From the NCBI GenBank assembly GCA_040954595.2, contig CM082587.2:8111705-8175704 (forward strand): a stretch of 64,000 nt of DNA, given 5' to 3'. The position numbers were made by a program, and so were the translations under genes. Each line of letters starts with the position of its first letter. The first letter of the stretch is position 1. Of this stretch, positions 11,280 to 61,955 are shown in pieces. Source of the stretch: Balanoglossus misakiensis. Taxonomy: Eukaryota > Animalia > Hemichordata. Below the pieces are notes generated by a model. That model was not told the DNA's origin. It did not search any database and saw nothing but the letters and a program-made list of their open reading frames with translations.

Positions 11280-12296
11280 ATGTCACTACGCACGACTATC
11301 CGATCACTAGATGTTTTATGCTGTGTCATGTACATCTTGATCACCTTCATTGGATTAATTGGCAATGCCATGGTGTGCTATACTGTCTTCGCCAACAAGA
11401 AAATGCGAACAGCGAGTAACTATCAACTGGTGTCTCTGGCTATTATGGACGGCATTGCCTGCGTTTTCGTCTCACCTATACGTTTGATCTTCACTGTTAA
11501 AGTGCTTCTCGAGAACGCTGATGAACTGGTGTTGGAGGAAGGCTATCTTTTACTCTGCAAGGTGCAGACGTTCATAGTAAACATGTCTACCATTGGTAGC
11601 GTAACTTCCCTGGCGACTTTGGGCGTGATACGGGCACTTGCCATAGTTGGGAATTATCCGAAGGAGCGTTTGGAAACAGCCATCAAAGGGTGTGTCATTC
11701 TTAACTATGTTGTCAGCTTTGCAGTAGCCATTTTGAAAGTGATCAAAGAAGGCGAAAGTTACGTGTGTTTCAATCGCACTGAGGAGTTGACCACCCAAGT
11801 CACCCTGCAATATCCGGGAGTGATCATCATTTTGGTGAGCTCGGTGACAATTACAGTGGCGTACATTAGCATTTGCTTCAAGATGAGATGCCATCAGCAA
11901 TCGGTAGTCCCATGGCTCCCCCAGCAAAGCGTCTCTGCAGAGAGAGCGGACATAGCAACGATCAGGGTGTCCGTCACGTTGGTGCTCTGCTTCTTCGCCA
12001 CTTCATTGCCGGTGTCGTTTTACTTCTTTCTGGTGCAGAGAGACCGCCATCCTATAACCCTCCACGTCGTCAACCTCTTGATGATGGTTTTACTGCTGGG
12101 TAGCGTCGTCAATCCAGTCGTGTACGCTCTCATGTCAAAGAATTTCCGGCGATACCTGAAGCAGCGCGGTACTGCACAGCAGGCCGCGGGTGTAACAGCA
12201 CGGTCAGCCAGGAGGGTTCATCCTGTCACAAGCGATGGAGGCACACCCCAACAAGTATCTACCAATAACGAAATACCTTTGGACAGTGCAGTGTAG
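11280..12296 (+). CDS. Intronless class A (rhodopsin-like) GPCR, orphan
   Basis: ORF track 11226-12296 starts at TTG; first ATG is 11280 (~338 aa). Seven hydrophobic segments; TM1 GN, ICL1 KKMRTASN, TM2 SLAIMD, TM3 Cys (LCK), TM6 CFFATSLP, TM7 NPVVY, helix 8 NFRR. Confidence 0.9.
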   Translation: MSLRTTIRSLDVLCCVMYILITFIGLIGNAMVCYTVFANKKMRTASNYQLVSLAIMDGIACVFVSPIRLIFTVKVLLENADELVLEEGYLLLCKVQTFIVNMSTIGSVTSLATLGVIRALAIVGNYPKERLETAIKGCVILNYVVSFAVAILKVIKEGESYVCFNRTEELTTQVTLQYPGVIIILVSSVTITVAYISICFKMRCHQQSVVPWLPQQSVSAERADIATIRVSVTLVLCFFATSLPVSFYFFLVQRDRHPITLHVVNLLMMVLLLGSVVNPVVYALMSKNFRRYLKQRGTAQQAAGVTARSARRVHPVTSDGGTPQQVSTNNEIPLDSAV

Positions 12297-15700: not shown

Positions 15701-16727
15701 TTAATAGTCTATAAGGCATTCTCTGAGAATTTCTATTCAGTAGTATATATACAATATATTATTTCCTCTACATTTCTTGTAGTTTTAGTCTTGTCAATAT
15801 CTGTGCAAACAATTCCATGTTGTAATCTATGTATTCTTCTTCCATATGGGCAAGAGGTACACACGTAGACAGACAGGCAGACAATTGTATAATCTATTAC
15901 AGTATGGTTAATTTTAATGAAATTTCATTGAAGTTCACAGTGAAGTACAAATGGCAATTCAAATTGTTCTTCATTAAAAGGCATGTTAGTCGATTTGTCA
16001 ATATTAAGGCATCGAAACGGAAAATTAAGTTCAGGTGATATTTCAATATGACTCGTTCATCAATCAACCAACTGTTTTTTTTCATTTTCATCATTTCTTG
16101 ACGTTTCCTCCCTTCGATGGTGGTCGGTTTGTTAATTTCACTCTCTCCGGCAAAGCTGTTATATATAAATGAGATAGTGAGAATAGTTATTTCATCATCT
16201 CAGGTCTTTGATCAATGGTACATTCAAGGAATTGATTATTTGGTATGATATTGCTATACCATACCAAACATCCAATAGCCGAATAATAAGCAACATTCAC
16301 GAAAAAAATCACCAAGGCAGTAAGTCAGTCATGCAGCGAGTCGACGTGTCCAAAAAAGCGAAATTTGTCAATCAATGAAATAAATCGGAATCGCCTAATC
16401 GCTATTTTTTATAGAAACAGAAAAAAAGCAAGAACAAAATATTTAAATTGTTTAATATGAATACAAATATTATTGTATTGATTGTATTGACATGTACAAG
16501 TCTAAACGGGATGAGTTGATGTATTCTCCTAAGATACACAGAGAGATGTCCAAAATTACCCACTGTACATGGAAAATTGAAATGTAGCCAATCACACATT
16601 GTTCTTTGGAAGACTCAGAAACGTTCTTTGAACCACACGGGACTATGTGTAAACTAGAGGTGAGTGCGTCCCGTAAACTCTTTAGGTAAATTTTGTTAAC
16701 AACAAAAAATATAGAGCACCAACCTTT

Positions 16728-19433
16728 TTATGCTTTCTCCTTTCCTTGCAGAGAGATCATTGCATCTTTTTTGTTATAACTCCTGGCTGTAAGTACACAT
16801 TCGAAATTAGTTAATAGAGCTGGTTGATGAGTAGATCACAAATGTAGAGCATCTCAACAACAAATCTTTTGTCACAAAGACAAAATGTAACAACAAGGTT
16901 TATTGTAACCATTCCGCAGGACCCCAGAATGATGGAATAAAATTCGTCTTAGCGATACATGTAATTGAATTGTTATACGTATATTGAATACACACATATT
17001 TACAAATTCACTCAGGTTGCCCTCTTACCTAGGATTACTTGATGTTAAAGGGACAAAGTCTCTCTCTCGCTGCCTTTTTTCCATTAATTATGTTTGATAC
17101 AAGACACTGTTTATGTTATTCTACATGTGGATATATAGTGAATCAATGATCAACAACACACAACTTCCATCCTGTTTGTATGATATGAGAGTAAAAACTC
17201 GCCCAATATGAATAAATGGTAAAGAACGATTATTCATTTTGGCGATTTTTTTCACTCTCCTGTCTATAAGAGGTATGGAAATTGTGTGTTCATTTACTAT
17301 ATATCCACAGGTAGAATAACAAACAGTGTCTTGTATCAAATATAATTAATGGAAAAAAGGGCAGCGAGAGAGAGACTTTGTCCCTTTAAATAATGCTTAC
17401 CGTACCGCGTTCCACAGTCTGAACAATCCGTTCCCCACTCACAAACTGACGTGTAAGCTCCTGCACCGCCGTCATCACAATCACCATCGTTTGCATAGGC
17501 ACAAGTGTTTACACAAGCTAGAAATAGAAATATCTATTGTTAACGACAGGTGGGCCATTGACCAACCAGCTGCGACTCTCTGCCAATGGCTATTATAACC
17601 AAATTACAACTAACCTCCTAAAACATGCATACATACATACATACATACATACATACATACATACATACATACATACATACATACATACATACTGTACATA
17701 CATACATACATACATACATACATACATACATACATACATGCATGCATGCATGCATGCATGCATACATACATACATACATACATACATACATACATACATA
17801 CATACATACATACATACATACATACATACATACATACATACATACATACATACATACATACATACATACATACATACATACATACATACATACATACATA
17901 CATACATACATACATACATACATACATACATAATAGCGTGTGTAGAGGGGTGCGTGTATGTGTGAATATATATCTATATCAGAGTGTGTTTATTTACATA
18001 TTGCAGCGATCAGGACAAATTCTGACCTTCTCGGCTTCCACAGTCTGTACAGTCGGTCCCATAAGCACAAACAGAGGTCCATGATCCAGCTCCTCCATCA
18101 TCACAATCGCCATCGCCAGCATAACTACATTCGTTGGTGCAACCTACAAAACGCCAAAGTACTTTTTAGTAACGCACATAATTTTGTGTTTGCGACACGT
18201 GGTACATGATATTCGCATGAACTGATCAATGGGGAAGGTGTCCCCTGTTTCTATTTTATAGCAGGTTATTTACATTATCATTAAAATAGAATACTTCGTC
18301 TAGTTTAAGGTGCCTTGGCATTTCGCATATAGCAAAAGAAGACTGCAGTAGTATACATTCCGGCGGGTATTAGTATAGGAATACAAATCAAACTAGTGGA
18401 TAAAATTTGTTCTACGGTTCCGTCTTGAACCGGAGACCCATTTACAGCAACTTTACTGGTATTACCACTGAAAGGAAGCCGTGGTTGACTTAGCAGATGA
18501 ATGCAACCAACCATCGACCAATCACTCGTCGGTCATCACTCCTGTAGTCATGCCCCAACTCTATTTTATAAATAGCCCGTCCACGACCACATCCAAACAT
18601 TCGTATTTGTCCGTTTAAGAGATTAAGTGATATCGTCGTTTACAAAATGATATCGTTATACTGATCATGTATTTTGGTAATTTGTGAATTTTGTGAGGTT
18701 TGCGAACTCCGCTAAACAGAACAGTATCCATGGCGGCGGGTTGATTACATGTGCATTAAACAAGAGATAATTTCAATACAATCAACATTGACTAGCACAT
18801 ACGAAAGAATGCGAAGTTGCTTACCTACACTCTTCTTTTCAATCGACTTGGAGAGAGAGAGAGAGGGAGAGCGAGAGAGAAATTTTATTCATGAAATAAA
18901 CTGAGCAGAAATTTGTAGCAAATAATACATTCTCAGTCAAATAAGGTCTTTCAATATAACTTCGGCAATGTTAGCTAATGTATCCTATTTCCGGGGCCGC
19001 CTTCTTTTTACGATTTCGCCTATGACGCTCTTTCCACCCATTTCATCACCTGAAGAGCTTTACCTTATTACTTGGTGAGTCCCTTTTATTGACTGAGCTT
19101 TACACATATACAAATTTCACCACAGTTTAAAAATAAACGTATTTAAGTAATGTCTTCTTATCAAATTTCCTAAGAATATAAAAAAAACCCAAAAGAATGC
19201 AAATTTCACTGCAACTTGAAAAAGTTTAACAAAGTCCACCTTAGGAAATCGGCATACCAAGTCAAATACCAATTTATTCTAGACTAAATTCCTATGTGAT
19301 AATTCTGACCTACCTTAGCAGTTTTCTTGCCTAACATCTTTGCAATGTAATCGCTTTTCTTCAAAACTTTCTGACACTCAGCCGAAGCCAGGAAGACGGC
19401 AAAGACCATGAGACACACAAACGCAGCCTTCAT
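16728..19433 (-). CDS. Secreted cysteine-rich prepro-protein (~144 aa) with two exon-encoded CDDGG/GTDC modules
   Basis: Minus-strand GT-AG exons 19433-19314 (MKAAFVCLMVFAVFLASAECQKVLKKSDYIAKMLGKKTAK), 18846-18825 (SIEKKSV), 18143-18027 (GCTNECSYAGDGDCDDGGAGSWTSVCAYGTDCTDCGSRE), 17517-17401 (ACVNTCAYANDGDCDDGGAGAYTSVCEWGTDCSDCGTRY), 16786-16728 (ARSYNKKDAMISLQGKEKA*). Splice phases are compatible throughout; the 22-nt exon and last exon are less certain. Confidence 0.82.
17049..17385. mobile_element. Palindromic MITE with TTAA target duplication (Kolobok-type ends), copy 1
   Basis: ttaa|agggacaaagtctctctctcgctgcc ... ggcagcgagagagagactttgtccct|ttaa; arms pair over most of the length. Confidence 0.9.
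17625..17931. repeat. (TACA)n microsatellite
   Basis: Directly visible; source of the spurious HTYI/MYVC ORFs. Confidence 0.98.
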
Positions 19434-22507: not shown

Positions 22508-24514
22508 ATGAAGAAACGAGGTGGCCAGTTCCCTTTTCGGGGTTTGATCATTCTCCTTACGGTCATGGCTGTGACTTTACAACAGTCAGGTAAGACTGTA
22601 TTTTTTTTTTACAATTACGACATAACCGTTTCGGACTGCACTGCCAGGTTTATTTCAGGACGCTGCCCCTCCTTGTGACATGCGTGTTTGTTACACTCAG
22701 CCTTCGTAGTCTTTCTAGTCTAATGTAGTTTGTAGTCTGGGTGTTATAATGGATACAGCCTGTACCGTGTTATACCGGTAAGGTCAACCTCGCGTGCTCT
22801 GCATACGACTGGTCAAATTCGGAATATTAATGTCGTTTAATAGTACACCACCGACAAACGTGTTCACTCTTTCATTTTTGTATCGTTCCAGTAACAGTTT
22901 ACGTGTAACGTGTGTGTCAACACGCATTTGAAAATTACACAAATTGCCGACAGCTCAAAACGCTGCGGCCCGTCTTGTCACCTAAAAGACCAACAGGAGC
23001 ACATAACTATCTGTTCACGTTGGCTTACTGTCCAAAAGCGGGTAGAGTTTCGAATATTATTTTCTTGACGTTCCAAATTCGTTTAGTGGCCATGACACGT
23101 ATCTTGTTGTCTAAAAATAAATTACAATACTGACTGTACACGTTTGCGTCCTCTTGCCACAGCTCATTAGTATAATTACATTCGCATATCGGAACAACAC
23201 CGTTGTCGATAAGTGTTTCCCGCTTGTGGAATGCCTTGACTTCGTATTTGCGGGCCATTAAGATATTTTTGTCATTTTATAATTCAGTTGGAAACGTTAA
23301 ACACACGTTTACTGCAGTCTTTTGTAGTTATTGTTAAGTATCGTAGCCCTAACGCGCCACCCACACGCCAGCCCAACACACACAAATATATATTTCATGA
23401 AGCCCGGAAGGTAATCCCAAGTGCACAGCATACACACCTTAGTTGTACAATGATCATGTGCCAGGTAAGACTGACAGATTAAGCCTTGTGTGGGCGCTCC
23501 GGCTCGCCACCTAAGACCCTGGCGTGTACCGTCAAAAGGAAAATCATCAATTTCATAATGTTTCTGTCGTGTAGTTTATGCGTTACACACAAGACAAGTT
23601 CCTGAAAGGGACTAAGTCTCTCTCTCGCTGCCCTTTTTCCATTAGTTATGTTTGATAAATGAAACCGTTTATGCTATTCTACTACTGGATATGTAGTGAA
23701 TCAACGTTCAACCACACACACCTTCCATCCAACCTGTAGACACGAGAGTGAAAAACTCGCCAAAATGAATAATCGGTGTTACCGTTTATTCATTTTGGCA
23801 AGATTTTGACTGAGTCTCTCGCATCCTACAAACGGGATAGAAGTTGATTGTGGTCGAGTGTTGATTCACCATATATCCACATGTAGAATAACATAAACGG
23901 TGTCTTGTATTGTCCCTTTAAAATTTTCATCGCAGGCTCGGTGACACTCATCCACATCAGCAGTTCTCAGAACTACTCATTGGCACAGGCGTTGTGCAAT
24001 CGTCTTGGTTTGCGCATGACCAAAGACGACAGTGAGCAAAAACACCGAGCCATACTGGACGCTCTTGAAGAGCAACAGCAATCTGATTTCAATTTTTGGA
24101 TAGACGCTCGCTTAACACCGGACAGAAGCGAAGTAAAGACCAGCGATGGTGAGGTGTTATCGTACACACCTTTTGCGCCCAAATTTCCTAAAAATGTGGG
24201 TGATTGCATATACATGATGTGAGTATGATACAAATCTGATTACTTCAGTCTTTTATAGACAGTAATATATGATATTCAGTGCAGCCAATTTGTGACTGAA
24301 ATCATAACCAAGAAATGGATCATATGTTCTCCTAAAAGCATCCATTTGCGAAATAACTATAGTGGAGCGCCAGATAAGTATGTAAGAAGATAGCCTAGCT
24401 AATTGTGTTTTTGACCGAAAGCAGGTTTTGCCGACACTCTGGATGTGTGTTGGGCTGCGGAGCAGTGATGTGCTTTGATGCAATTCTTTATAATCCATAC
24501 GTTGTACATTGCCT

Positions 24515-24608
<94 letters not shown>

Positions 24609-26130
24609 TAGAAAAGGCGCATGGAAGGACCGTGATTGCGCTGAAACAAGAAACGTATTGTGTGAAAACGCAAGTAAGTGGGACTATATTTTAATATCTC
24701 GCGTGCGAAGCCCACCTCGCGTCCAAGCATATCATCAATCCATTATTTATGTTCCAATAAAAACAATTAATCAAAACAACAACAGGCTGAGCAACAACAA
24801 CGAAACCAGGACAAATCAAACTGCACACATAACTGACCTGAGATGGGCATACCAGAGGCTGATTCACAAAGACTATTGACAAACGGAATCCAAGAGCCAT
24901 CTTCCAAGAACTAAAAACTGATAAGAAATTAAAACACAAATTTGTCAGTTAACTATTTGAATGAATTTAAATCCGACCAAACACAGAACACGCTATGAGT
25001 CACTGTCGGTACCAGACACACGCAGGCGCTCTGAGACTCAGCAGACACTGTACAGTTACGAAAACGTAGCCTAGCGTACGACAGAACGTCACTAGATAAC
25101 GACAGTGGGGTATAAATAATGACGTTTACATCTTCACAGCTTCTGAAGAAATTTTTGCTTTGGCTCGGAGGAACATGACGGAGGCATCCAAAGTCTGTGA
25201 AACATTTGGTCTGCGCTTGGTAAGAGACGTCAATAAAGAGATTCACCGCCAGTTACGCGATTACGTTCGCTCTAAGACAGACGTCCGTTCTTGGATCGAT
25301 GCGAAGATCACGTCCGGGAACAAAGTAGAAACAAGCGATGGTATGGCGCTGACGTATAAACCGTTTGCTACTAATGAGACAATTGCTGATGGACTATGCA
25401 TCTACATAACGTGAGTACATAGAAATTTTACGTATGAAAGATTGAAAGAAATTCTGGCCAATTGACCACACCTAACAGTGTTAATCCCAATGTGCCCCCC
25501 CCCCCGCTAGCCAATAAAAGTATCAGGAACTAATTGGATTGAATTTAATTGAGTAATCATTTCCTTAATCGTCGACGTTAATTTTATACTACATCGTATT
25601 AAATTAAATCCAATTTGTCTTACAGAACCATGAAGGACGCATATTGGCAAACCACAACGTGTAACTTCACCACTCGTTATATATGTGAAGGTAATCACTG
25701 CAACATATTGTCAATATGTTCAACTAGCGGTACCCGTTTTTGGTTAAGAACCATTTTACTGTTGAACAACACCTGACCTTTTGTGAATATGTAAGCCTCG
25801 GACAGAAATAAAGTTGACATCATAATAATTGTATTTTCTTATTTTATTCCGGCAAGGCGAGGGGGATATCATAGCTCTGCGAGAACGGTTGGTCCAAATA
25901 AATACTAGTATGGCGGCGATTAACGAACCCTCTTCAGTAAGTGAGAAGTAAAACATTTCCCCCTCCCATTATGCTTATGTGATTTCATGACATGTCTACA
26001 TCCATCCATTCTTCAATGATTTGTTTTACTCTCTGTGCTTGTTAAGATTTTGACTCAATTGCAATTTTTTTCCGAACCTTCTGTTTTATCAGTTTCACTG
26101 TCCTTGCGTGCGTACCAGCATGCAAGCATG

Positions 26131-26161
<31 letters not shown>

Positions 26162-29100
26162 ATGTCTGTCTGTCTGTCTGTCTGTCTCTCTGTCTGTCTG
26201 TCTTTCTATCTGATCGTCGGCCTCTCAGCCTTTTCCGCCTGTGTGCGTTTATATACTAGTATTATGCAAACACTTTAAATTTTTTGTTGTCATTGATGTA
26301 CGAAAAGTTAGGTAGGGTGATGTAATTACTATACACATCAATCATTCACGATATTTTAATAATAAAATCGTCGAAGTTAAATCTCAGTGATAATATAAAA
26401 TTACTGTAGAACTAATTGTTCTATGACCATACCCGTGAGCTTATAATCTATAAAATGTGCCCCAACATCAGACAAGTGAAATTAAATTCCAGTGAAAATG
26501 GATGCTTTTAAAGTATTTGTATACTTAGAAATGTGGCACAAGAAATAAATCAAATATTTGAAACGGAGGCAACTACATTGTATTGTCCATTCTTTGAATT
26601 ACCTTACTAAAACAATATGCCTGTTTTTCCTTGACATTTATGTCCCCAGAAAATCGATGTCATCAACGAATTATTCAACTTTACTGAGAAACTCTCGGAG
26701 AAAGATGTCTCCCTAGAAGACAGCGTGGCTCTGAGCCAAGGTTAGTAATTTGGAGATACTACTTCAATGTGAGACTGGGAAGATTTGTAATAGGCATATA
26801 GAAACAATACATGTGATTGTTTACAATCACGCATAGAAGATGTTATACCCATTTTCTAAGAAAACATAAACATAGATCTAGAAGCAGACGTCGAAGTGTG
26901 TCAAGACATTAAATTTACGTAGCTCGTTTCGCTTATCATGTGTTATTATAGCCCTATTAAAAAACCAAACACATTATAGATCAAAATAATGTTTTCCACT
27001 GATTCTATTTCGTCAAGATTTTCGTTAATTTTTGAAACAGAAATGACAATATTTCCAGAAATGATATCATATGAATGGAGATATCTTGCCTTAGAAATAT
27101 TCTTTTTATTGATCCAGTCGTTATTATTTATTTCAGATGTCTTCAATGTAATGCAGATTGTGCTTGATGCCAGTGTGCCGATAAATGACACTTTGATAAC
27201 GATCGACGGGGTAGTGGACTTGACTGCGCAAATCGAGCAAATAGCCGATAATCTGGCGATGTTTATGCTCACCAAGGCCGGTGAAAATGACACAATTGTT
27301 GTGGAAACCAATTCGGTAATGTTGCATCTTCGGAGGAGCTCCCTGCAAAACCTCTGCAATACCACTATCATGGTCGGTGACGTCAGCGGCTTTGTTCTTC
27401 CGCCGGCGGAGATTCTGTTTCCAAATTTGCCAATGGACGCGGTAATAAACAGAATGGTGAGATGTGTTAAATCACCCCCCCCCCTTCTCTACCTCTATCT
27501 CCCCCTGTCCTTCTCCCCCTCATTCCTCCGTGTCTATCTCTCTCGCCTTCCTTCATCTCCCCTTCTTTCTCTCTTCAATCTCTCTCCTGTATGTCGCTTT
27601 CAGATTGATCTCTGCAGAACTATAACAACAAGCGGTTATAATGTGACCTCGATCACATGTGCTATGCATTCTCCTTTCAGGTATTTCGGTTTAGAGGCAA
27701 TCCTCGTCGACAGACAAATATCATGGCGCACCGCTTCACAACTGACATATTGGCCATGTGGTACAAAGACGACGCCGGCAAAGAGATCCGAGGTATACAC
27801 AATGACGTCACTAGTATGTGTATCATGATAGTCTGTGTAGTAGCACACATTGTCTGCGTTGCACTAAGTGAATTCTTATAAATGCGGCACTGTATTCTTC
27901 ATTTCAGCACAAAATGTCACTCAAGACATTGGTATATGGCTTGGAAATTATCAAGAGGCACTGAATGAAACGGTTTTGGCAGGAGTCTATATTGAATCAG
28001 AAGGTGTAACTCATTATAGCTGTGCCGTTCAGGTGAGGATTTATACCCAAAAGCTTAGACTAACCCACTAGTCGCTTGGTGATTTTTAAATCTCAATAGC
28101 TTTTGCGTTTTCGGTGTTTTTTTGTCTTAATAAACAATTGCAATATTTTTTGCGTGCATGCTTGCCTTGAGCGTGTTTTTTTGGTAGTGAGGTGAGTTTC
28201 GAATTTGGGACTGAGCTTGTGGTTTCGGGTAGCGTCGACCAAGCGTCTATGGGCCTACGCGTTCCCTGCACATAATGAAACCCATAGACTTGGAGCAAGT
28301 CTACCCAAAGCTGTCCATATAACGTACCTCCAATCCTGCCCACCCGCTAATCTCTTCATAAATACCATTCTGTCACAAGTGAACAAACGAATGGCAAAAG
28401 ATATTGACTTTTATAAATAATACGAGAAAAAAAACACCTTAAAATTTATCTTTAGAGTGAATCAGATAGGTCATTAAAATTTTACCAAGACTCGGATCGC
28501 TTGTCGCCAGAAGCAAAAATGCGTATCATGTATCGAGTAGGGCTTGAAGAAAGAAAACTATGAGCTTATAATGTAATCAGTGCATCATTTGAACTTATAT
28601 TTGGTTCAGATATAAATTGACCGAACTAGCCAGTCATGCAGCCGCCTAACCAATCCTTAAAAGTGGCCTCGCGAAATACAGACTGCTATTTTTCCATTCA
28701 GGCGTTCACCAAGTACCATGCACTCCAGATCAGTTTGGAAGGATCAGCGACTGTCTATGAAAACACGACGGCCTCTGTGTCATCTGAAATGCTTGGCGAC
28801 GCCAGGACTGTAGCTGACGGTGGTTTTCACTTTACAAGAGAGTTACTGTTTGATGGGACTGTTGCAAGTATATTCCTACCCGAAGAAAATGTCACCAAAA
28901 CTGGAAATATTTACTTGACGTTCGACCTGGAGTACAGTATGTACCAGTGTGTTATACTCGTATAACTATACATGTTGTAAAACAGAACAAAAGCACGTCA
29001 TGAGGGTCGTTGTTGGGTTGAACCACTCGGTAGATTCTACCTTGGGGTAGATGGTAAAAAGAACTGTTCTACTACTACTTTGACAACTGCATTATATTCA

Positions 29101-32517: not shown

Positions 32518-32833
32518 TAAGCAATAAAACACCCCCAGCCATGGTATAACACGAGATTTTGACCACTTCAAGACATATACGCACGAGCGATAGCGAGTGC
32601 GTATATGGAGTTGAACTGGTCAAAATCGAGTGGTATATCATGGCTGGGGGTGTTTTATTGCTATTATATTATGCCAGTATATTGAAACTTTGCATAAAAC
32701 ATGTTAAAAAGGCATTTTCTTTGACTATGATATATGACTGTGGTATATGGCTTATATATCACCGTCACGTGTCGTGTCTCGACCAATAAAATAGCGTGTT
32801 TTACACCATCAATATACTGGTATAATATAATAA
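32518..32833. mobile_element. Non-autonomous element with A-A' hairpin followed by B...B' inverted pair
   Basis: agcaataaaacacccccagccatg...ttttgacca / tggtcaaaa...catggctgggggtgttttattgct, then attatattatgccagtatattg ... caatatactggtataatataat. Confidence 0.7.
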
Positions 32834-32882
32834 TCATTATTAAACGTGATGCCAAAGGATCGGGCAGGTGATCAATTACTTT

Positions 32883-34586
32883 CTATGCATTCAGGTTAAG
32901 AATGCTTTTCGCTTGTATCGCTACTTCCTTGCGCTTAATTTTGCCTGTTCTGGTCAGCGGAAATTTCTCAAAAAACAGCACATATTTAGGGTGCCGAAAA
33001 AAATCAAAATGTCTTGCTTTAAAGTATGTCAAAAATTCACTCTCTGTAGCCAATTGATGTTTGTGAAGAACAACGCAGACGCAAAGGTCTTCAAGAAAGT
33101 GTTCATCTGGGACACCAACCACTTGAACTTGTTTGATCTTTGGGTGCTGATAAAATATCTGCTCCAATTCAGCTGGATATATGTTCACCCCTCCTTTGAG
33201 AATCATGTCATCTTTTCGACCTAGAACCGTCAACATACCACTTTCATTCAGCTGCCCTACATCACCCGTAAGGAACCATCCATCTTCAGTTTTCACTCTC
33301 TTTGTTATATCTTCGTCACCCAAGTATCTTTTGAAATGAAACGGGCTTCGGAAGCATATTTCACCAGAGGTGTTGATCGGCGTTATTTGACCAGTTGTCA
33401 AGTCAGTTATCTTGACTTCGCCATACGGTGCACACGAACCTGACGTCAATACTCTGTCTTCCAGGGGTACGGTGGATTTGGGGAGGGCAATTGCCCCACA
33501 CTCGGTGCTAGAGTAAGTGTGTTGAATATCACAGGAGAGTTTCTCAGATGCCGTTTTCATGATAGATGCAGCAACACAGCTACCCGTGGACTTCACATAC
33601 TTTAAGCTTCTGATATTGAATTTCTCAATATCAGAGTAATCACGAATACATGTCAGGTCATTAGGCAACAGCAATAGTGTGTTGCCCTTTTCAGCTTCGA
33701 TGGCACGCAATGAGCCTTCCAAGCTGTCTGTATCTCGAAAGACGATTGTTGCACCAAGGGTCAACATTATCCCTTCAATAAAAGTATGTAGACCAGAGCA
33801 GAACTTTTCAGTGTGTGGAATTACCAATCTCTCCGAGTTTCTGTCTGCAACTTTGTAACCATACATATAGTCCATAGTTATTGCCATTCCTTGGGGACGG
33901 TTATGTGGTATGCCAACTGCTTTTGGAAATCCTGTACTTCCAGATGTGAATACAACCATCGCAATGGAGTCGAGATCTGTAGCAGTCTTTGCGTTTTGCA
34001 GGAGTTCTTTTGCTGCGTCGTTATCTCCAAGTTTTCTTACGTCACAGAGCTGCGTAATGGATGAATGTTCCAACGGTGTCATTGAGATGACGTGCCGTAA
34101 AGTAGGAAACTCTTCCAGAGTGTTTCCTTCCCATATTCCAGTTTTGAGGTTCGGGATAACATCAACCAAAGCCTGCAGTTGGTCAGTGTGAGTTAATCCA
34201 ATGACAAGGGCTTGACACTCCACCTTCTTCAACAAGTGACGCACATGCGCTGTAGGTGTGAATGCTGGAATCCGCACAGATACACACCCAGCTGTAATTA
34301 TGGCAAGATCAGTAACCAACCATTGATAATTTTCGTGATCTTGGGCCCAGATAGCGACGTTATCTCTTGGTTTCAGTCCGAACTTCAGTAGACCAGCAGC
34401 AAGCACGTTGACATCTCTGTGAAGTTCAGCAAACGTCTTCCTGGTACCGTCTTCTAAAAAGACCAAGGCTTCTCTGTCAGGGAACAGTTCTGCAGCATCG
34501 TCGAGCAGATCAGCAACTGTTTTCCCTTGAAGAGGTGTATCCCAAGGTTGGTGGAAGTAACTTCTTGTCAATTTGCTCTGTGCCAT
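32883..34586 (-). CDS. Acyl-CoA synthetase (ANL/AMP-binding, ACSF2-like), copy A, single coding exon
   Basis: ATG at 34586 (MAQSKL) after a splice acceptor (ttatttaaacag). Motifs FTSGSTGFPKAV, YSSTE, GEICFRS, GWFLTGDVG, GRKDDMILKGG, TGKIKR. Confidence 0.93.
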   Translation of the reverse strand: MAQSKLTRSYFHQPWDTPLQGKTVADLLDDAAELFPDREALVFLEDGTRKTFAELHRDVNVLAAGLLKFGLKPRDNVAIWAQDHENYQWLVTDLAIITAGCVSVRIPAFTPTAHVRHLLKKVECQALVIGLTHTDQLQALVDVIPNLKTGIWEGNTLEEFPTLRHVISMTPLEHSSITQLCDVRKLGDNDAAKELLQNAKTATDLDSIAMVVFTSGSTGFPKAVGIPHNRPQGMAITMDYMYGYKVADRNSERLVIPHTEKFCSGLHTFIEGIMLTLGATIVFRDTDSLEGSLRAIEAEKGNTLLLLPNDLTCIRDYSDIEKFNIRSLKYVKSTGSCVAASIMKTASEKLSCDIQHTYSSTECGAIALPKSTVPLEDRVLTSGSCAPYGEVKITDLTTGQITPINTSGEICFRSPFHFKRYLGDEDITKRVKTEDGWFLTGDVGQLNESGMLTVLGRKDDMILKGGVNIYPAELEQIFYQHPKIKQVQVVGVPDEHFLEDLCVCVVLHKHQLATESEFLTYFKARHFDFFRHPKYVLFFEKFPLTRTGKIKRKEVAIQAKSILNLNA

Positions 34587-36513
34587 ATTGATGTTCCTCT
34601 GTTTCTGTTTAAATAAGAGAAGATAAAACACTTGATGCAAATGTCTATTTGTCGACACGCATTAATGTATTCCATATATGCATCCATTGACTATAAATAA
34701 TTACAACATTTAATTTATTCCATGACTCGACAGGGCAGTTAATTATCTGACAAATTTTTCTTCTAATTTAGTCCACTGGTCTAATGTAACACACCTCTCT
34801 GGGATTTGAGAGAAAACAGGTCACAATTGTGAGTCACCTAATGAGGTCATTCGTGAAATTTCTTGTGTCTTAGAGTTGCTATATTGTCACTTTTCAGATC
34901 TTATGGTGTCAGAGGCATTTGGTTTAAAGAGCTGTAATTTATTTCTTTATCATGAAACAATGTTAGGTCAAATCAGATACATGTACTTTGTCATGGAATA
35001 CCCACATGTACAGTGTATGTATAATTGTGACTGCAATCATTTGTGATACAGCATATGTTGAGTTGATAAAACAGACCATAACCATACCAAAAGATTAAAA
35101 CAATAAGCAAGACAATGTGTTTTTTCAAATGGTTAAGAAATAAGGATTAACACTGTCAAACATTATAAACTTTGCATCTCCCAATTAGTGTCTCTCTCAG
35201 ACTGTCGCCCACATTACTCATTGTGAACACGCATCATTGAACATGACCTTGTGATTTACTTATCAATTGTCGAATGGAGAAGACCATTGTACGCATTGAC
35301 TATACCAACATGGTCTTGGCCCCCAAAAATTTCACTCATTGAGTGCATGAACGACAAATTACTTCTCCATTTCAAAAATTATTGCCGAAAATAGCTAACT
35401 TATCTGAATGCCTGACTCTGAAATCAGACGGAACACTATACAAACAAGCTTAAGTGTGTTTCAGGGACAATCAAGGTTGTCCTTATTAACATAATAGTAC
35501 ATTGAACTTGTCGTTTTCGCAAAATCATGTTTGTTTGCGCAAATTTGCTGTTAATTTATGATGAAGTGAATAGGTACTTACCACTTTGTTCCAGTATTCC
35601 TGTACTGCAGACGGTGAATAGAGTTGTCGTTGCTGAAGTAGCAACCAAGGTGTGTGGATGAGGAATTAAGCGTGGGACAACTCCAAAGTCACACCACACC
35701 CAATGCATGTACATGTACTTTTGGTTCTGTGGGTATATTTGCGCATGCCCAATACAAATACATTTGCATTTGCGTGGGTTTTTCAACTGACGTCAAAGGT
35801 CACATGGAAATTGAAAGAGGATCTTTCACGGTATACGGGCAACATGAAAAGGCTGTATTAGGACACAAGGTGACAAATATGTATGTTTTTTCAGTGTTAT
35901 AAAGCCAGCGTTTGGACTGGTCAATTCAGGGGAGAAACCCGTGAAGTTTATACTCAGGGGGCTTTTTGACGTTTTGTCAAAAAAAAATCCGTTTTTGTAA
36001 AAGAAAATTAAATATGCACATTTCTACGTCAGATGACACCGATTGTTTTAGCATATGATATGCAAATAGCTGTGAGTCGAAAAAACACCGCTGGATTCAT
36101 GTACCTGTCGTGCTCAGCCAAACTGTTGAGGGCGTATCAGTGTATGACGTTTGTAGAGCTCCGCATGGGCCGTGAGTGAGTGAGTAGAAGACGGCCCTAG
36201 CGTCACATCGTAAATTATTAATAATAAAACTGACGATATGTGACGTGGATAAACAAGGCCGTTATGACAGCACAATGGAAAATGACCTCGAAAATCGCAC
36301 ACGCCTACTCTTTAGCAGGACAGGCAAGAAATGACCTTGTGATTGTCACATTTGTAAATATTAGTACTTCAGCACCTGAGCCTTGTCGATTTTCACTAGT
36401 ATAGAAATGTATGTATTTTACTCGTTCTATTATTCGACATTCGCGTTTTAAACAAAACGAGACCAGAGTTCGAGAGACACGTTTGCTGTAGAAGGACGTT
36501 GCCACCTGTAACC

Positions 36514-49564
<13,051 letters not shown>

Positions 49565-59800: not shown

Positions 59801-60186
59801 GACCATGTTGGTAGTCAATGCGAACAAAGGTCTTCTTCATTCGACAATTGATAAGTAAATCACAAGGTCATGTTCAATGAGGCAAGACGCAAGAAATGTC
59901 ACGAATGACCTCATTAGGTGACTCACAATTGTGACCTGTTTTCTCTCAAATCCCAGAGAGGTGTGTTACATTAGACCAGTGGACTAAATTAGAAGAAGAA
60001 TTTGTCAGATAATTAACTGCCCTGTCGAGTCATAGAATAAATTAAATGTTGTAATTATTTATAGTCAATGGATGCATATGGATTACATTCATGCATGTCG
60101 ACAAATTGACGTTTCGCGCAACATTTCCACAATTGCATCAAGCGTTTTATCTTCTCTTATTTAAACAGAAACAGAGGAACATCAAT

Positions 60187-61884
60187 ATGGCACAGAGCAA
60201 ATTGACAAGAAGTTACTTCCATCAACCTTGGGATACACCTCTTCAAGGGAAAACAGTTGCTGATCTGCTCGACGATGCTGCAGAACTGTTCCCTGACAGA
60301 GAAGCCTTGGTCTTTTTAGAAGACGGGACCAGGAAGACATTCGCTGAACTTCACAGAGATGTCAACGTGCTTGCTGCTGGAATACTGAAGTTTGGGCTGA
60401 AACCAAGAGATAACGTCGCTATCTGGGCCCAAGATCACGAAAATTATCAATGGTTGGTTACTGATCTTGCCATAATTACAGCTGGGTGTGTATCTGTGCG
60501 GATTCCAGCATTCACACCTACAGCGCATGTGCGTCACTTGTTGAAGAAGGTGGAATGTCAAGCCCTTGTCATTGGATTAACTCACAGTGATCCTCTACAA
60601 GCTTTGGTCGATGTTATCCCGAACCTCAAAACTGAAATACGGGAAGGAAATACTCTGGAAGAGTTTCCTACTTTACGGCACGTCATCTCAATGACACCGT
60701 TGGAACATTCATCCATTACGCATCTCTGTGATATAAGGAAACTTGGAGATAACGATGCAGCAAAAGAACTCCTGCAAAACGCAAAGACTGCTACAGATCT
60801 CGACTCCATTGCGATGGTTGTATTCACGTCTGGAAGTACAGGATTTCCGAAAGCAGTTGGCATACCACATAACCGTCTTCAAGGAATGGCAATGATTATG
60901 GACTATATCTTTGGTTACAAAGCTGCAGACAGAAACTCGGAGAGATTGGTAATTCCACACACTGAAAAGTTCTGCTCTGGCCCACACACCTTTATTGAAG
61001 GGGTAATGTTGACCCTTGGTGCAACAATCGTCTTTCGAGATGCCGTCAGTGTGGCAGGCCTGTTGCGTGCCATCGAAGCTGAAAAGGGTAATACACTTTT
61101 GCTGTTCCCTTATGACTTGACATGTATTCGTGATTACTCTGATATTGAGAAATTTAATATCAGAAGCTTAAAGTATGTGATGTCCACAGGTAGCTGTGTT
61201 GCTGCGTCTATCATGAAAATGGCATCTGAGAAATTCTCCTGTGATATTCAACACTTTTACTCTAGCACCGAGTGTGGGGCAATTGCCCTCCCCAAATCCT
61301 CTGTACCCCTGGAAGTGTTGACGTCGACCTCGTGTGCACCGTATGGCGAACTCAAGATAACTGACTTGACAACTGGTCATATAACGCCGATCAACACCTC
61401 TGGTGAAATATGCTTTCGAAGCCCGTTTCATTTCAAAAGATATTTGGGTGACGAAGATATAACAAAGAGAGTGAAAACTGAAGATGGATGGTTTCTTACG
61501 GGTGATGTAGGGCAGCTGAATGAAAGTGGTATGTTGACGGTTCTAGGTCGAAAAGATGACATGATTCTCAAAGGAGGTGAGAACATATACCCAGCTGAAT
61601 TGGAGCAGATATTTTATCAGCACCCAAAGATCAAACAAGTTCAAGTGGTTGGTGTCCCAGATGAACACTTTCTTGAAGAGCTTTGCGTGTGTGTTGTTCT
61701 TCACAAACATCAATCGGCTACAGAAAGTGAATTTTTGACCTACTTTAAAGCACGGCATTATGATTTTTATCGGCACCCTAAATATGTGCTGTTTTTCGAG
61801 AAATTTCCGCTGACCAGAACAGGGAAAATTAAGCGCATGGAAGTAGCGATACAAGCAGCAAGCATTCTTAACCTGAATGCATAG
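60187..61884 (+). CDS. Acyl-CoA synthetase (ANL/AMP-binding, ACSF2-like), copy B, single coding exon
   Basis: ATG 60187 (MAQSKL); close paralog of 32883-34586 in opposite orientation, same core motifs, two residues shorter near VPLE. Confidence 0.93.
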   Translation: MAQSKLTRSYFHQPWDTPLQGKTVADLLDDAAELFPDREALVFLEDGTRKTFAELHRDVNVLAAGILKFGLKPRDNVAIWAQDHENYQWLVTDLAIITAGCVSVRIPAFTPTAHVRHLLKKVECQALVIGLTHSDPLQALVDVIPNLKTEIREGNTLEEFPTLRHVISMTPLEHSSITHLCDIRKLGDNDAAKELLQNAKTATDLDSIAMVVFTSGSTGFPKAVGIPHNRLQGMAMIMDYIFGYKAADRNSERLVIPHTEKFCSGPHTFIEGVMLTLGATIVFRDAVSVAGLLRAIEAEKGNTLLLFPYDLTCIRDYSDIEKFNIRSLKYVMSTGSCVAASIMKMASEKFSCDIQHFYSSTECGAIALPKSSVPLEVLTSTSCAPYGELKITDLTTGHITPINTSGEICFRSPFHFKRYLGDEDITKRVKTEDGWFLTGDVGQLNESGMLTVLGRKDDMILKGGENIYPAELEQIFYQHPKIKQVQVVGVPDEHFLEELCVCVVLHKHQSATESEFLTYFKARHYDFYRHPKYVLFFEKFPLTRTGKIKRMEVAIQAASILNLNA

Positions 61885-61955
61885 AAAGTAATTGATCACA
61901 TGCCCGATCCTTTAAGCATCACGTTTGATAATGGTTAAAGGCACAGTCACCCAAT

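Follow-up and report, generated by a model that had tools for sequence, protein, structure and literature searches.

Animal extracellular proteins draw on a limited set of shuffled modules, among them EGF, LDL-A, LNR and CUB, and the origins of new modules are rarely visible. The six cysteines of the LNR module (PF00066) pair 1-5, 2-4 and 3-6, and its last four are spaced C3-x3-C4-x4-C5-x6-C6. The LDL-receptor class A repeat is an acidic, cysteine-rich extracellular unit with a D-C-x-D motif and the disulfides 1-3, 2-5 and 4-6. In the available text of the structural papers, LNR modules are calcium-bound spirals with short helical turns, held together by disulfides (PMC9579167, PMC3145759, PMC2542473); those of PAPP-A serve as substrate exosites on a metzincin (PMC11925022).

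Here we describe a small gene from the acorn worm Balanoglossus misakiensis that is predicted to encode two copies of a further six-cysteine module. It was found in the window, by which we mean the whole 64-kb stretch of contig CM082587.2 that was analyzed. No curated library contains the module, which has stayed almost the same (identity of up to 78% over 36 positions) across bacteria, algae, putative giant viruses and acorn worms. In acorn worms, where five protein architectures contain it, it already appears to behave like a shuffled exon. The gene appears previously unannotated and the module family undescribed; the kind to which it belongs (small, likely calcium-binding, disulfide-rich shuffled modules) is already known.

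Results

Five minus-strand exons, all with GT/AG ends, add up in frame to 144 codons and a stop (435 nt), with the phases 0, 0 to 1, 1 to 1, 1 to 1 and 1 in 5' to 3' order. The splicing is predicted, and it returns the same coordinates and the same 144-residue product as the initial sequence-only reading. The coding part of exon 1 (19314..19433, 120 nt) contains the start codon, a predicted signal peptide (approximately residues 1-18/20) and a Lys-rich pro-region, and runs up to a phase-0 donor at 19313. A 22-nt micro-exon of phase 0 to 1 (18825..18846), proposed from its splice signals, supplies a KK pair directly N-terminal of the first module. The two modules occupy exon 3 (18027..18143) and exon 4 (17401..17517), each 117 nt long and of phase 1/1, just as had been read from the sequence at the outset. 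The probable last coding exon (16728..16786, 59 nt), predicted and the least secure of the five, would add a basic tail with another KK pair and the stop codon. The closest poly(A)-signal hexamer, ATTAAA at 16451..16456, is a motif match only, about 270 nt 3' of the stop. Intron 3 includes a four-base microsatellite of 77 copies (17623..17932), and intron 4 a long inverted-repeat, MITE-like element (17045..17389) with a 78%-identical copy at 23605-23910.

The two modules are identical at 27 of 38 residues. Third codon positions hold 22 of the 37 nucleotide differences between them (binomial p=0.001), and 13 of the 27 identical residues have a changed codon, which indicates selection on the protein and hence that the modules are protein-coding. 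An HMM of 832 distinct modules from other organisms, run over all six frames of the 64 kb, scores exons 3 and 4 at 52.5 and 51.5 bits; the next-best spot reaches 2.7, so that no third module exon is found within these 64 kb. The gene has neither stops nor frameshifts. Its GC3 of 0.41 is similar to that of the two AMP-binding enzyme genes of the window, where the further neighbors are also of animal type: gamma-glutamyl transpeptidase exons, a rhodopsin-type GPCR gene about 4.4 kb away, a C-type lectin exon and a sialyltransferase. Animal neighbors, host repeats in the introns and the GC3 value make contamination unlikely. The locus is almost certainly a coding gene.

The exact exon model is less secure, although judging from the sequence we consider it fairly probable as given. 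It is rather unlikely that the modules are real while the model is partly wrong (the micro-exon skipped, another last exon used, or a longer gene), or that the locus is a pseudogene or contaminant; these last two, taken alone, are extremely unlikely. The main doubts concern the micro-exon and the last exon. A candidate alternative phase-1 donor within 19304..19313, with its GT at 19309, would keep the frame without the 22-nt exon, splicing exon 1 directly to module 1 and deleting the KK pair before it; it matches six of nine consensus bases versus eight of nine for the donor at 19313. The signals of the micro-exon itself are strong: its pyrimidine tract scores 19/19 and its donor 7/9, although AAG is uncommon as an acceptor. 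It is the best among only three candidates, which share one donor. Ranked by pyrimidine content, the acceptor of the last exon is not in the top 12 candidates of the 2.4 kb 3' of exon 4; the tail and its KK pair are therefore the weakest part of the model. Half of the acorn worm relatives (7 of 14) stop no more than nine residues beyond their last module. Against these alternatives stand the open frame, the third-position bias, the spliceosomal introns with host repeats, the animal-type neighbors, the GC3 and the lack of any third module exon in the 64 kb.

Across 601 aligned modules from 153 proteins, the module is 38 residues long with the spacing C-x3-C-x7-C-x11-C-x5-C-x2-C. The six cysteines are kept in 86-99% of these modules, Asp10, 14, 15, 30 and 33 in 88, 88, 96, 97 and 96%, Gly16, 17, 28 and 35 in 88-93%, and Arg37 in 82%. 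The exact spacing, the glycines, the aromatic positions and the terminal arginine are conserved from bacteria to animals. A profile made from two sequences retrieves 2,579 clusters (50% identity) at E<=0.001, and 554 at E<=1e-10. Neither window module has a match in Pfam (0 families at E<=10), NCBIfam or the PDB sequences, and family profiles and 51 family members likewise match no named domain family or PDB sequence; the suspicion that the motif belongs to no described family thus held in these searches. The sole PDB sequence hit, a RIFIN at E 0.72, is noise. Weak zf-HYPF matches raised a zinc-finger reading, which we reject: the matches span the C-x2-C end only and come from proteins with signal peptides, and the paired loss of Cys1 and Cys5 described below also counts against it.

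The literature gave a similar picture. Module motif strings occur in no paper of the literature searched, subscription journals lying outside its scope, and the same holds for six LOC identifiers (four from S. kowalevskii, two from G. talaboti). None of the titles and abstract openings returned by topic searches describes the module; the curated transfer list of PMC4729200 lies outside that scope and may bear on novelty. In its available parts, an astacin review (PMC9848320) gives accessory domains without this module, and a paper on the S. kowalevskii nervous system (PMC10508912) does not mention it.

Loss of cysteines is informative about pairing. Of 446 modules with the canonical spacing, 411 have Cys1 as well as Cys5, 28 have neither, seven lack only Cys1 and none lacks only Cys5; the 28 double losses come from 11 proteins, some of them related, and are not independent events. 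A set of 300 proteins gives the same pattern, with both cysteines kept in 804 modules, both lost in 32, Cys1 alone lost in 16 and Cys5 alone in none. This co-loss implies, at the level of sequence, a Cys1-Cys5 disulfide; bonds between Cys2 and Cys4 and between Cys3 and Cys6 are assumed by analogy with LNR. The five conserved aspartates suggest calcium binding, and on this sequence pattern the module probably binds the ion.

AlphaFold2 models one module, that of exon 4, with high confidence from a 51-row alignment (pLDDT 94), and the model has only one four-residue helix. Such near absence of regular secondary structure is the character described for LNR in the available part of PMC9579167. Together with the conserved aspartates and the co-loss of cysteines, the model supports the LNR-like acidic, disulfide-rich character that the module had been credited with from its letters. 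The fold comparison proposed alongside yielded this confident model and no PDB match: Foldseek against the PDB returned no module match for the one-module model, whose 38 residues give low power, or for P0187, a two-module relative from G. talaboti. Foldseek against viral models found no module match either. VIA-align against 48,161 chains, again of low power at 38 residues, gave none, and in its two-module run retrieved only helices matching the N-terminal 55 residues. Queried with the S. kowalevskii protein P0144, the ESM Atlas gave no usable match by features and TM<0.4 by structure. Another search of the atlas gave one weak lead, scoring 0.82 and so below the atlas's stated bar, to a cluster in which 40% of members carry PF00066. 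A scan of five genomes for bacterial PF00066 loci as a control returned none, and its own control matched nowhere either. Blank fold searches of this kind do not indicate that the fold is new or that it differs from LNR.

Two database searches recorded the best 120 of 1,465 and the best 120 of 294 matches, and an organism name is attached to 34 of these 240 rows: 14 belong to acorn worms, 13 to bacteria and six to haptophytes, and one has a fungal label, Batrachochytrium. This outcome of the HMM and taxon tabulation first suggested for the module bears out the expectation that the motif occurs in haptophytes and bacteria, the latter here being Myxococcota and Bradymonadales, and Phycisphaerae. 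All 14 animal matches named are from three acorn worm species: four from P. flava (P0044, P0150, P0045, P0062), three from G. talaboti (P0059, P0164, P0187) and seven from S. kowalevskii (P0144, P0095, P0140, P0108, P0054, P0107, P0190), all of them entries called 'uncharacterized' or loosely named. The module was also thought not to be a familiar animal domain. This stands in that no named family contains it; the gene is not alone among animals, having at least 14 acorn worm relatives. Echinoderms, amphioxus, protostomes, cnidarians and sponges are all missing from the 34 organism-named matches listed. The matches listed favor proteins with many modules, and one of the two profiles was built from acorn worm proteins; since only the best 240 of 1,759 are listed and 34 named, one-module proteins of other animals could be missed. 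One transcript-sized match with an animal-like look, P0294, has no assigned organism. Of 75 pattern matches in GTDB genomes, 32 held up on inspection, Myxococcota accounting for 19 of them, and metagenomes yielded 72 confirmed among 600 examined. Viral contigs contributed 18 loci, 16 of them in four putative giant-virus bins, as single reading frames of about 30% GC.

Microbial proteins have the module either in bare arrays that follow a signal peptide, often with linkers rich in Pro or Thr, or attached to other domains. Among the best 120 long-protein matches listed, 25 of 56 Pfam-annotated rows include papain-C1 or trypsin, and further microbial partners are subtilase, M43-like peptidases and lamin-tail/MopE. 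In acorn worms three modules are joined to an astacin domain (P0107, P0190), and other fusions are with EGF+HYR (P0062), with a domain like Ly6 (P0108) and with a membrane anchor (P0045); small precursors combine a Lys-rich pro-region with two to four acidic modules. Copy number in acorn worms ranges from two to six, and many relatives are bare tandem arrays. The symmetric 117-nt phase-1/1 exons of the window and the five acorn worm architectures agree with the original claim of a shuffled extracellular module. Such a range of partners suggests the behavior of portable binding heads, and agrees poorly with the idea of a toxin or hormone of dedicated function.

The N-terminus of the predicted protein is hydrophobic, with a 9-residue Kyte-Doolittle mean of up to 3.1; judged by hydropathy only, residues 3-17 form the hydrophobic stretch of a signal peptide and small residues follow. 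The layout of signal peptide, Lys-rich pro-region and acidic modules is common to six relatives (P0044, P0150, P0059, P0164, P0187 and P0144). Hydropathy and this recurrence together support the secreted prepro-protein first proposed, and the protein is very probably secreted. The AlphaFold2 model of P0187 (pTM 0.40) has a single long helix made up of signal and pro-region, with the modules folded apart from it. Net charge is +7 over the first 48 residues of the window protein, -14 over the 73-residue core and +4 in the tail. KK pairs stand at residues 25, 36, 44 and 131. Cleavage after both KK44 and KK131 would release a product of 85 residues, about 8.6 kDa and pI 4.05; both pairs fall on the two least secure exons, the micro-exon and the last exon. 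In five of seven small relatives, KK or KR occurs within 15 residues before the first module; the other two have neither. Processing at the KK pairs is plausible from the sequence. Dibasic pairs are common by chance in a pro-region so rich in lysine, and convertases favor KR or RR over KK. Measured against shuffles, the pro-region and tail resemble none of the 14 acorn worm relatives significantly (in the best case, 65 of 1000 shuffles scored as high), and with no likeness beyond the modules there is no clear ortholog among them. An apparent likeness to P. flava P0150 (pairwise E 3e-4) was rejected, because 152 and 623 of 1000 shuffles scored as high.

To place the modules on a tree, we aligned 101 of them over 36 columns, excluding those with non-canonical spacing and capping each bacterial reading frame, and each unnamed algal-type protein, at two modules. 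One of 98 inner branches is starred, and a single acorn worm origin is neither shown nor excluded; the acorn worm label changes 18 times on the tree versus a shuffled mean of 28. Acorn worm modules are about as distant from bacterial modules (57% identity) and haptophyte ones (54%) as from one another (56%). The window modules are closest to myxobacterial ones, at 72-78%, whereas module 1 reaches 69% with its best match in acorn worms; the bacterial figures are inflated because the bacterial rows of the tree were found with the window's own motifs.

Discussion

On the best reading, the gene would encode a secreted surface-binding module rather than a toxin or hormone. The signal peptide would take the protein into the secretory pathway, where three disulfides would form (Cys1-Cys5 as suggested by co-loss, Cys2-Cys4 and Cys3-Cys6 by analogy with LNR) and Asp10, 14, 15, 30 and 33 would bind Ca2+. 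The basic flanks (+7 and +4) could shield the acidic core (-14) and then be trimmed, perhaps at KK pairs, to yield a tandem of about 85 residues, 8.6 kDa and pI 4. Once released into mucus or some other secretion, the pair of heads may attach to a ligand on the surface of microbes, food particles or matrix; fused to astacins and other peptidases, such heads would steer the enzyme to its target. We hold the surface-binding role tentatively, at somewhat below an even chance. The same grade applies to the whole explanation—a secreted precursor with two calcium-folded modules as a portable surface-binding head of microbial origin.

Other functions can be weighed against the same observations. The acidic tandem might be mainly a chelator of metal or mineral: a calcium buffer, a cross-linker of mucus gel or a regulator of ossicle mineral. 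A net charge of -14 over 73 residues, a predicted pI near 4, five conserved aspartates per module and the many bare tandem arrays among the relatives would suit such a role. We consider it improbable nonetheless, since the conservation of spacing, glycines, aromatics and terminal arginine from bacteria to animals goes beyond what bulk chelation needs, and peptidases of unrelated classes carry the module. That the product is a toxin or defence peptide, or else a hormone acting through a receptor of its own, appears decidedly improbable. Signal, pro-region, dibasic site and Cys-rich core are the usual layout of both; the rhodopsin-type GPCR gene lies nearby, and three G. talaboti copies agree in the length of their contig and have close LOC numbers, consistent with a cluster. 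The GPCR, however, is linked by position alone, copy number varies from two to six, membrane-anchored and enzyme-fused forms occur in the same animals, and Pfam and the PDB contain no toxin or hormone family match. The core is also anionic, unlike membrane-lytic antimicrobial peptides. The defence, toxin and signalling roles entertained in the sequence-only reading are accordingly disfavored, given a strongly acidic core and a module that sits in membrane-anchored arrays and on unrelated peptidases.

Returning to the secreted binding head, its history is the second question. The locus has the features of an animal locus used in the available part of PMC4729200: four introns with host repeats, and GPCR, C-type lectin, GGT and sialyltransferase neighbors. 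Simakov et al. date the split of Saccoglossus, Ptychodera and Glandiceps to over 370 million years before the present (PMC4729200, available part), and the presence of the module in all three genera places it in acorn worms before that split. According to the same text, their survey required chordate members, and an acorn-worm-only module would therefore fall outside it. A transfer from a marine microbe to the acorn worm stem, followed by capture in a phase-1 exon of its own and shuffling, would account for these observations at about an even chance. We put the microbial origin of the acorn worm module at or just under even; the fuller claim, that a new animal extracellular building block was born from a microbial gene and is confined to one phylum, stands just under even.

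Vertical descent is a serious alternative, if one we rate below an even chance: a module as old as eukaryotes, or older still, and perhaps remotely related to LNR would have been retained by acorn worms and lost or missed in other animals. The module is present in haptophytes, other protist-like sequences and bacteria; the nearly equal distances of acorn worm modules from bacterial, haptophyte and one another's modules fit such a history, as does the weak ESM Atlas lead to the cluster partly made of PF00066 members. There is precedent as well, to judge from the available text of two papers: scattered retention is discussed for the acorn worm GH13_1 amylase (PMC7003070), and Simakov et al. treat repeated loss as the alternative to transfer (PMC4729200). 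Against it, the 34 organism-named matches listed include no other animal, so that many losses would be needed, PF00066 is absent from the 51 family members at E<=1, and the module does move between domains, as putative giant-virus bins carry it.

Whichever route brought it there, the module is a small disulfide-stapled scaffold. Its family, with more than 2,500 clusters, is now defined, and a ligand could be sought with a 38-residue peptide.

Among known systems, the acorn worm relatives share the same module, at up to 69% identity over 36 columns, and six of the 14 share the whole precursor layout; beyond the modules none is significantly similar to the window protein. The microbe-like deuterostome genes of Simakov et al. 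(PMC4729200, available part) resemble this one in having introns, animal neighbors and relatives in marine bacteria and micro-algae; the present case differs in being a shuffled extracellular module, among animals so far named only in acorn worms. LDL-receptor class A and Cu-binding_MopE (PF11617) repeats are, like this module, acidic, Cys-rich, extracellular and D-C-x-D-bearing, and PF11617 adjoins it in bacterial proteins, but neither profile matches the window modules. Membership in LDL-A is further contradicted by the loss of Cys5 with Cys1 and never alone, unlike the LDL-A pairing.

The closest likeness is to LNR. Both modules are small and extracellular, with six cysteines, conserved aspartates, tandem use and little regular secondary structure; the Cys1-Cys5 pairing implied here is also the LNR pattern. 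Each has a metzincin partner, PAPP-A for LNR and astacin for this module. The differences are equally clear. LNR modules span 29-33 residues in PAPP-A according to the available text of PMC11925022, versus 38 here, and calcium binding is measured for LNR and inferred for our module. PF00066 does not match the window modules at E<=10, and the module profile matches no Notch chain in the PDB. The spacing of x3, x7, x11, x5 and x2 departs from that of LNR. By sequence and spacing the module is thus not a Pfam LNR member, but by analogy it likely works like the LNR of Notch.

Genomic neighbourhood of the module gene

The window contains an inverted duplication: two intronless reading frames for AMP-binding (acyl-CoA synthetase-like) proteins, one on the minus strand at 32831-34871 and the other on the plus strand at 59884-61937, display 93% identity across approximately 2 kb and are spaced 25 kb apart. 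Both are long single-exon enzyme frames within an intron-rich genome and may be retrocopies or of microbial origin. A MITE-like element that ends in long terminal inverted repeats occurs twice (17045-17389 and 23605-23910), with 78% identity between the copies. Long repeated units of low GC content (28%), with microsatellites at both borders, occupy approximately 39800-46600; this block is probably satellite DNA.

A single-exon rhodopsin-type GPCR (PF00001, E 2e-17) is encoded on the plus strand at 11280-12296, about 4.4 kb from the stop codon of the module gene, position being the one link seen between the two. On the same strand, at about 23900-29000, a C-type lectin exon is followed by further exons which, by eye, may be polycystin/REJ-type receptor-like.

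Distribution and variants of the module

Several bacterial-type and algal-type proteins recovered by profile searches (P0030, P0057, P0077, P0082, P0093, P0114, P0117, P0122 and P0147) carry a subtype of the module with four cysteines, in which the first and fifth are missing. Protein P0238, where the module is borne on Thr/Pro stalks, is labelled Batrachochytrium salamandrivorans and has a look-alike in the unnamed P0080; the label may stem from a contaminated assembly. Another unnamed protein, P0294 from a 1.7-kb contig, combines a signal peptide, a Lys-rich start and a C-terminal pair of modules, and looks animal-like.

Long, secreted-looking module proteins are also encoded in giant-virus bins (L103:2633-5965 and loci L104-L120), making giant viruses a possible transfer route for the module. 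The L103 protein joins the module to a subtilase-like region and Pro-rich linkers, a combination similar to that of haptophyte proteins.
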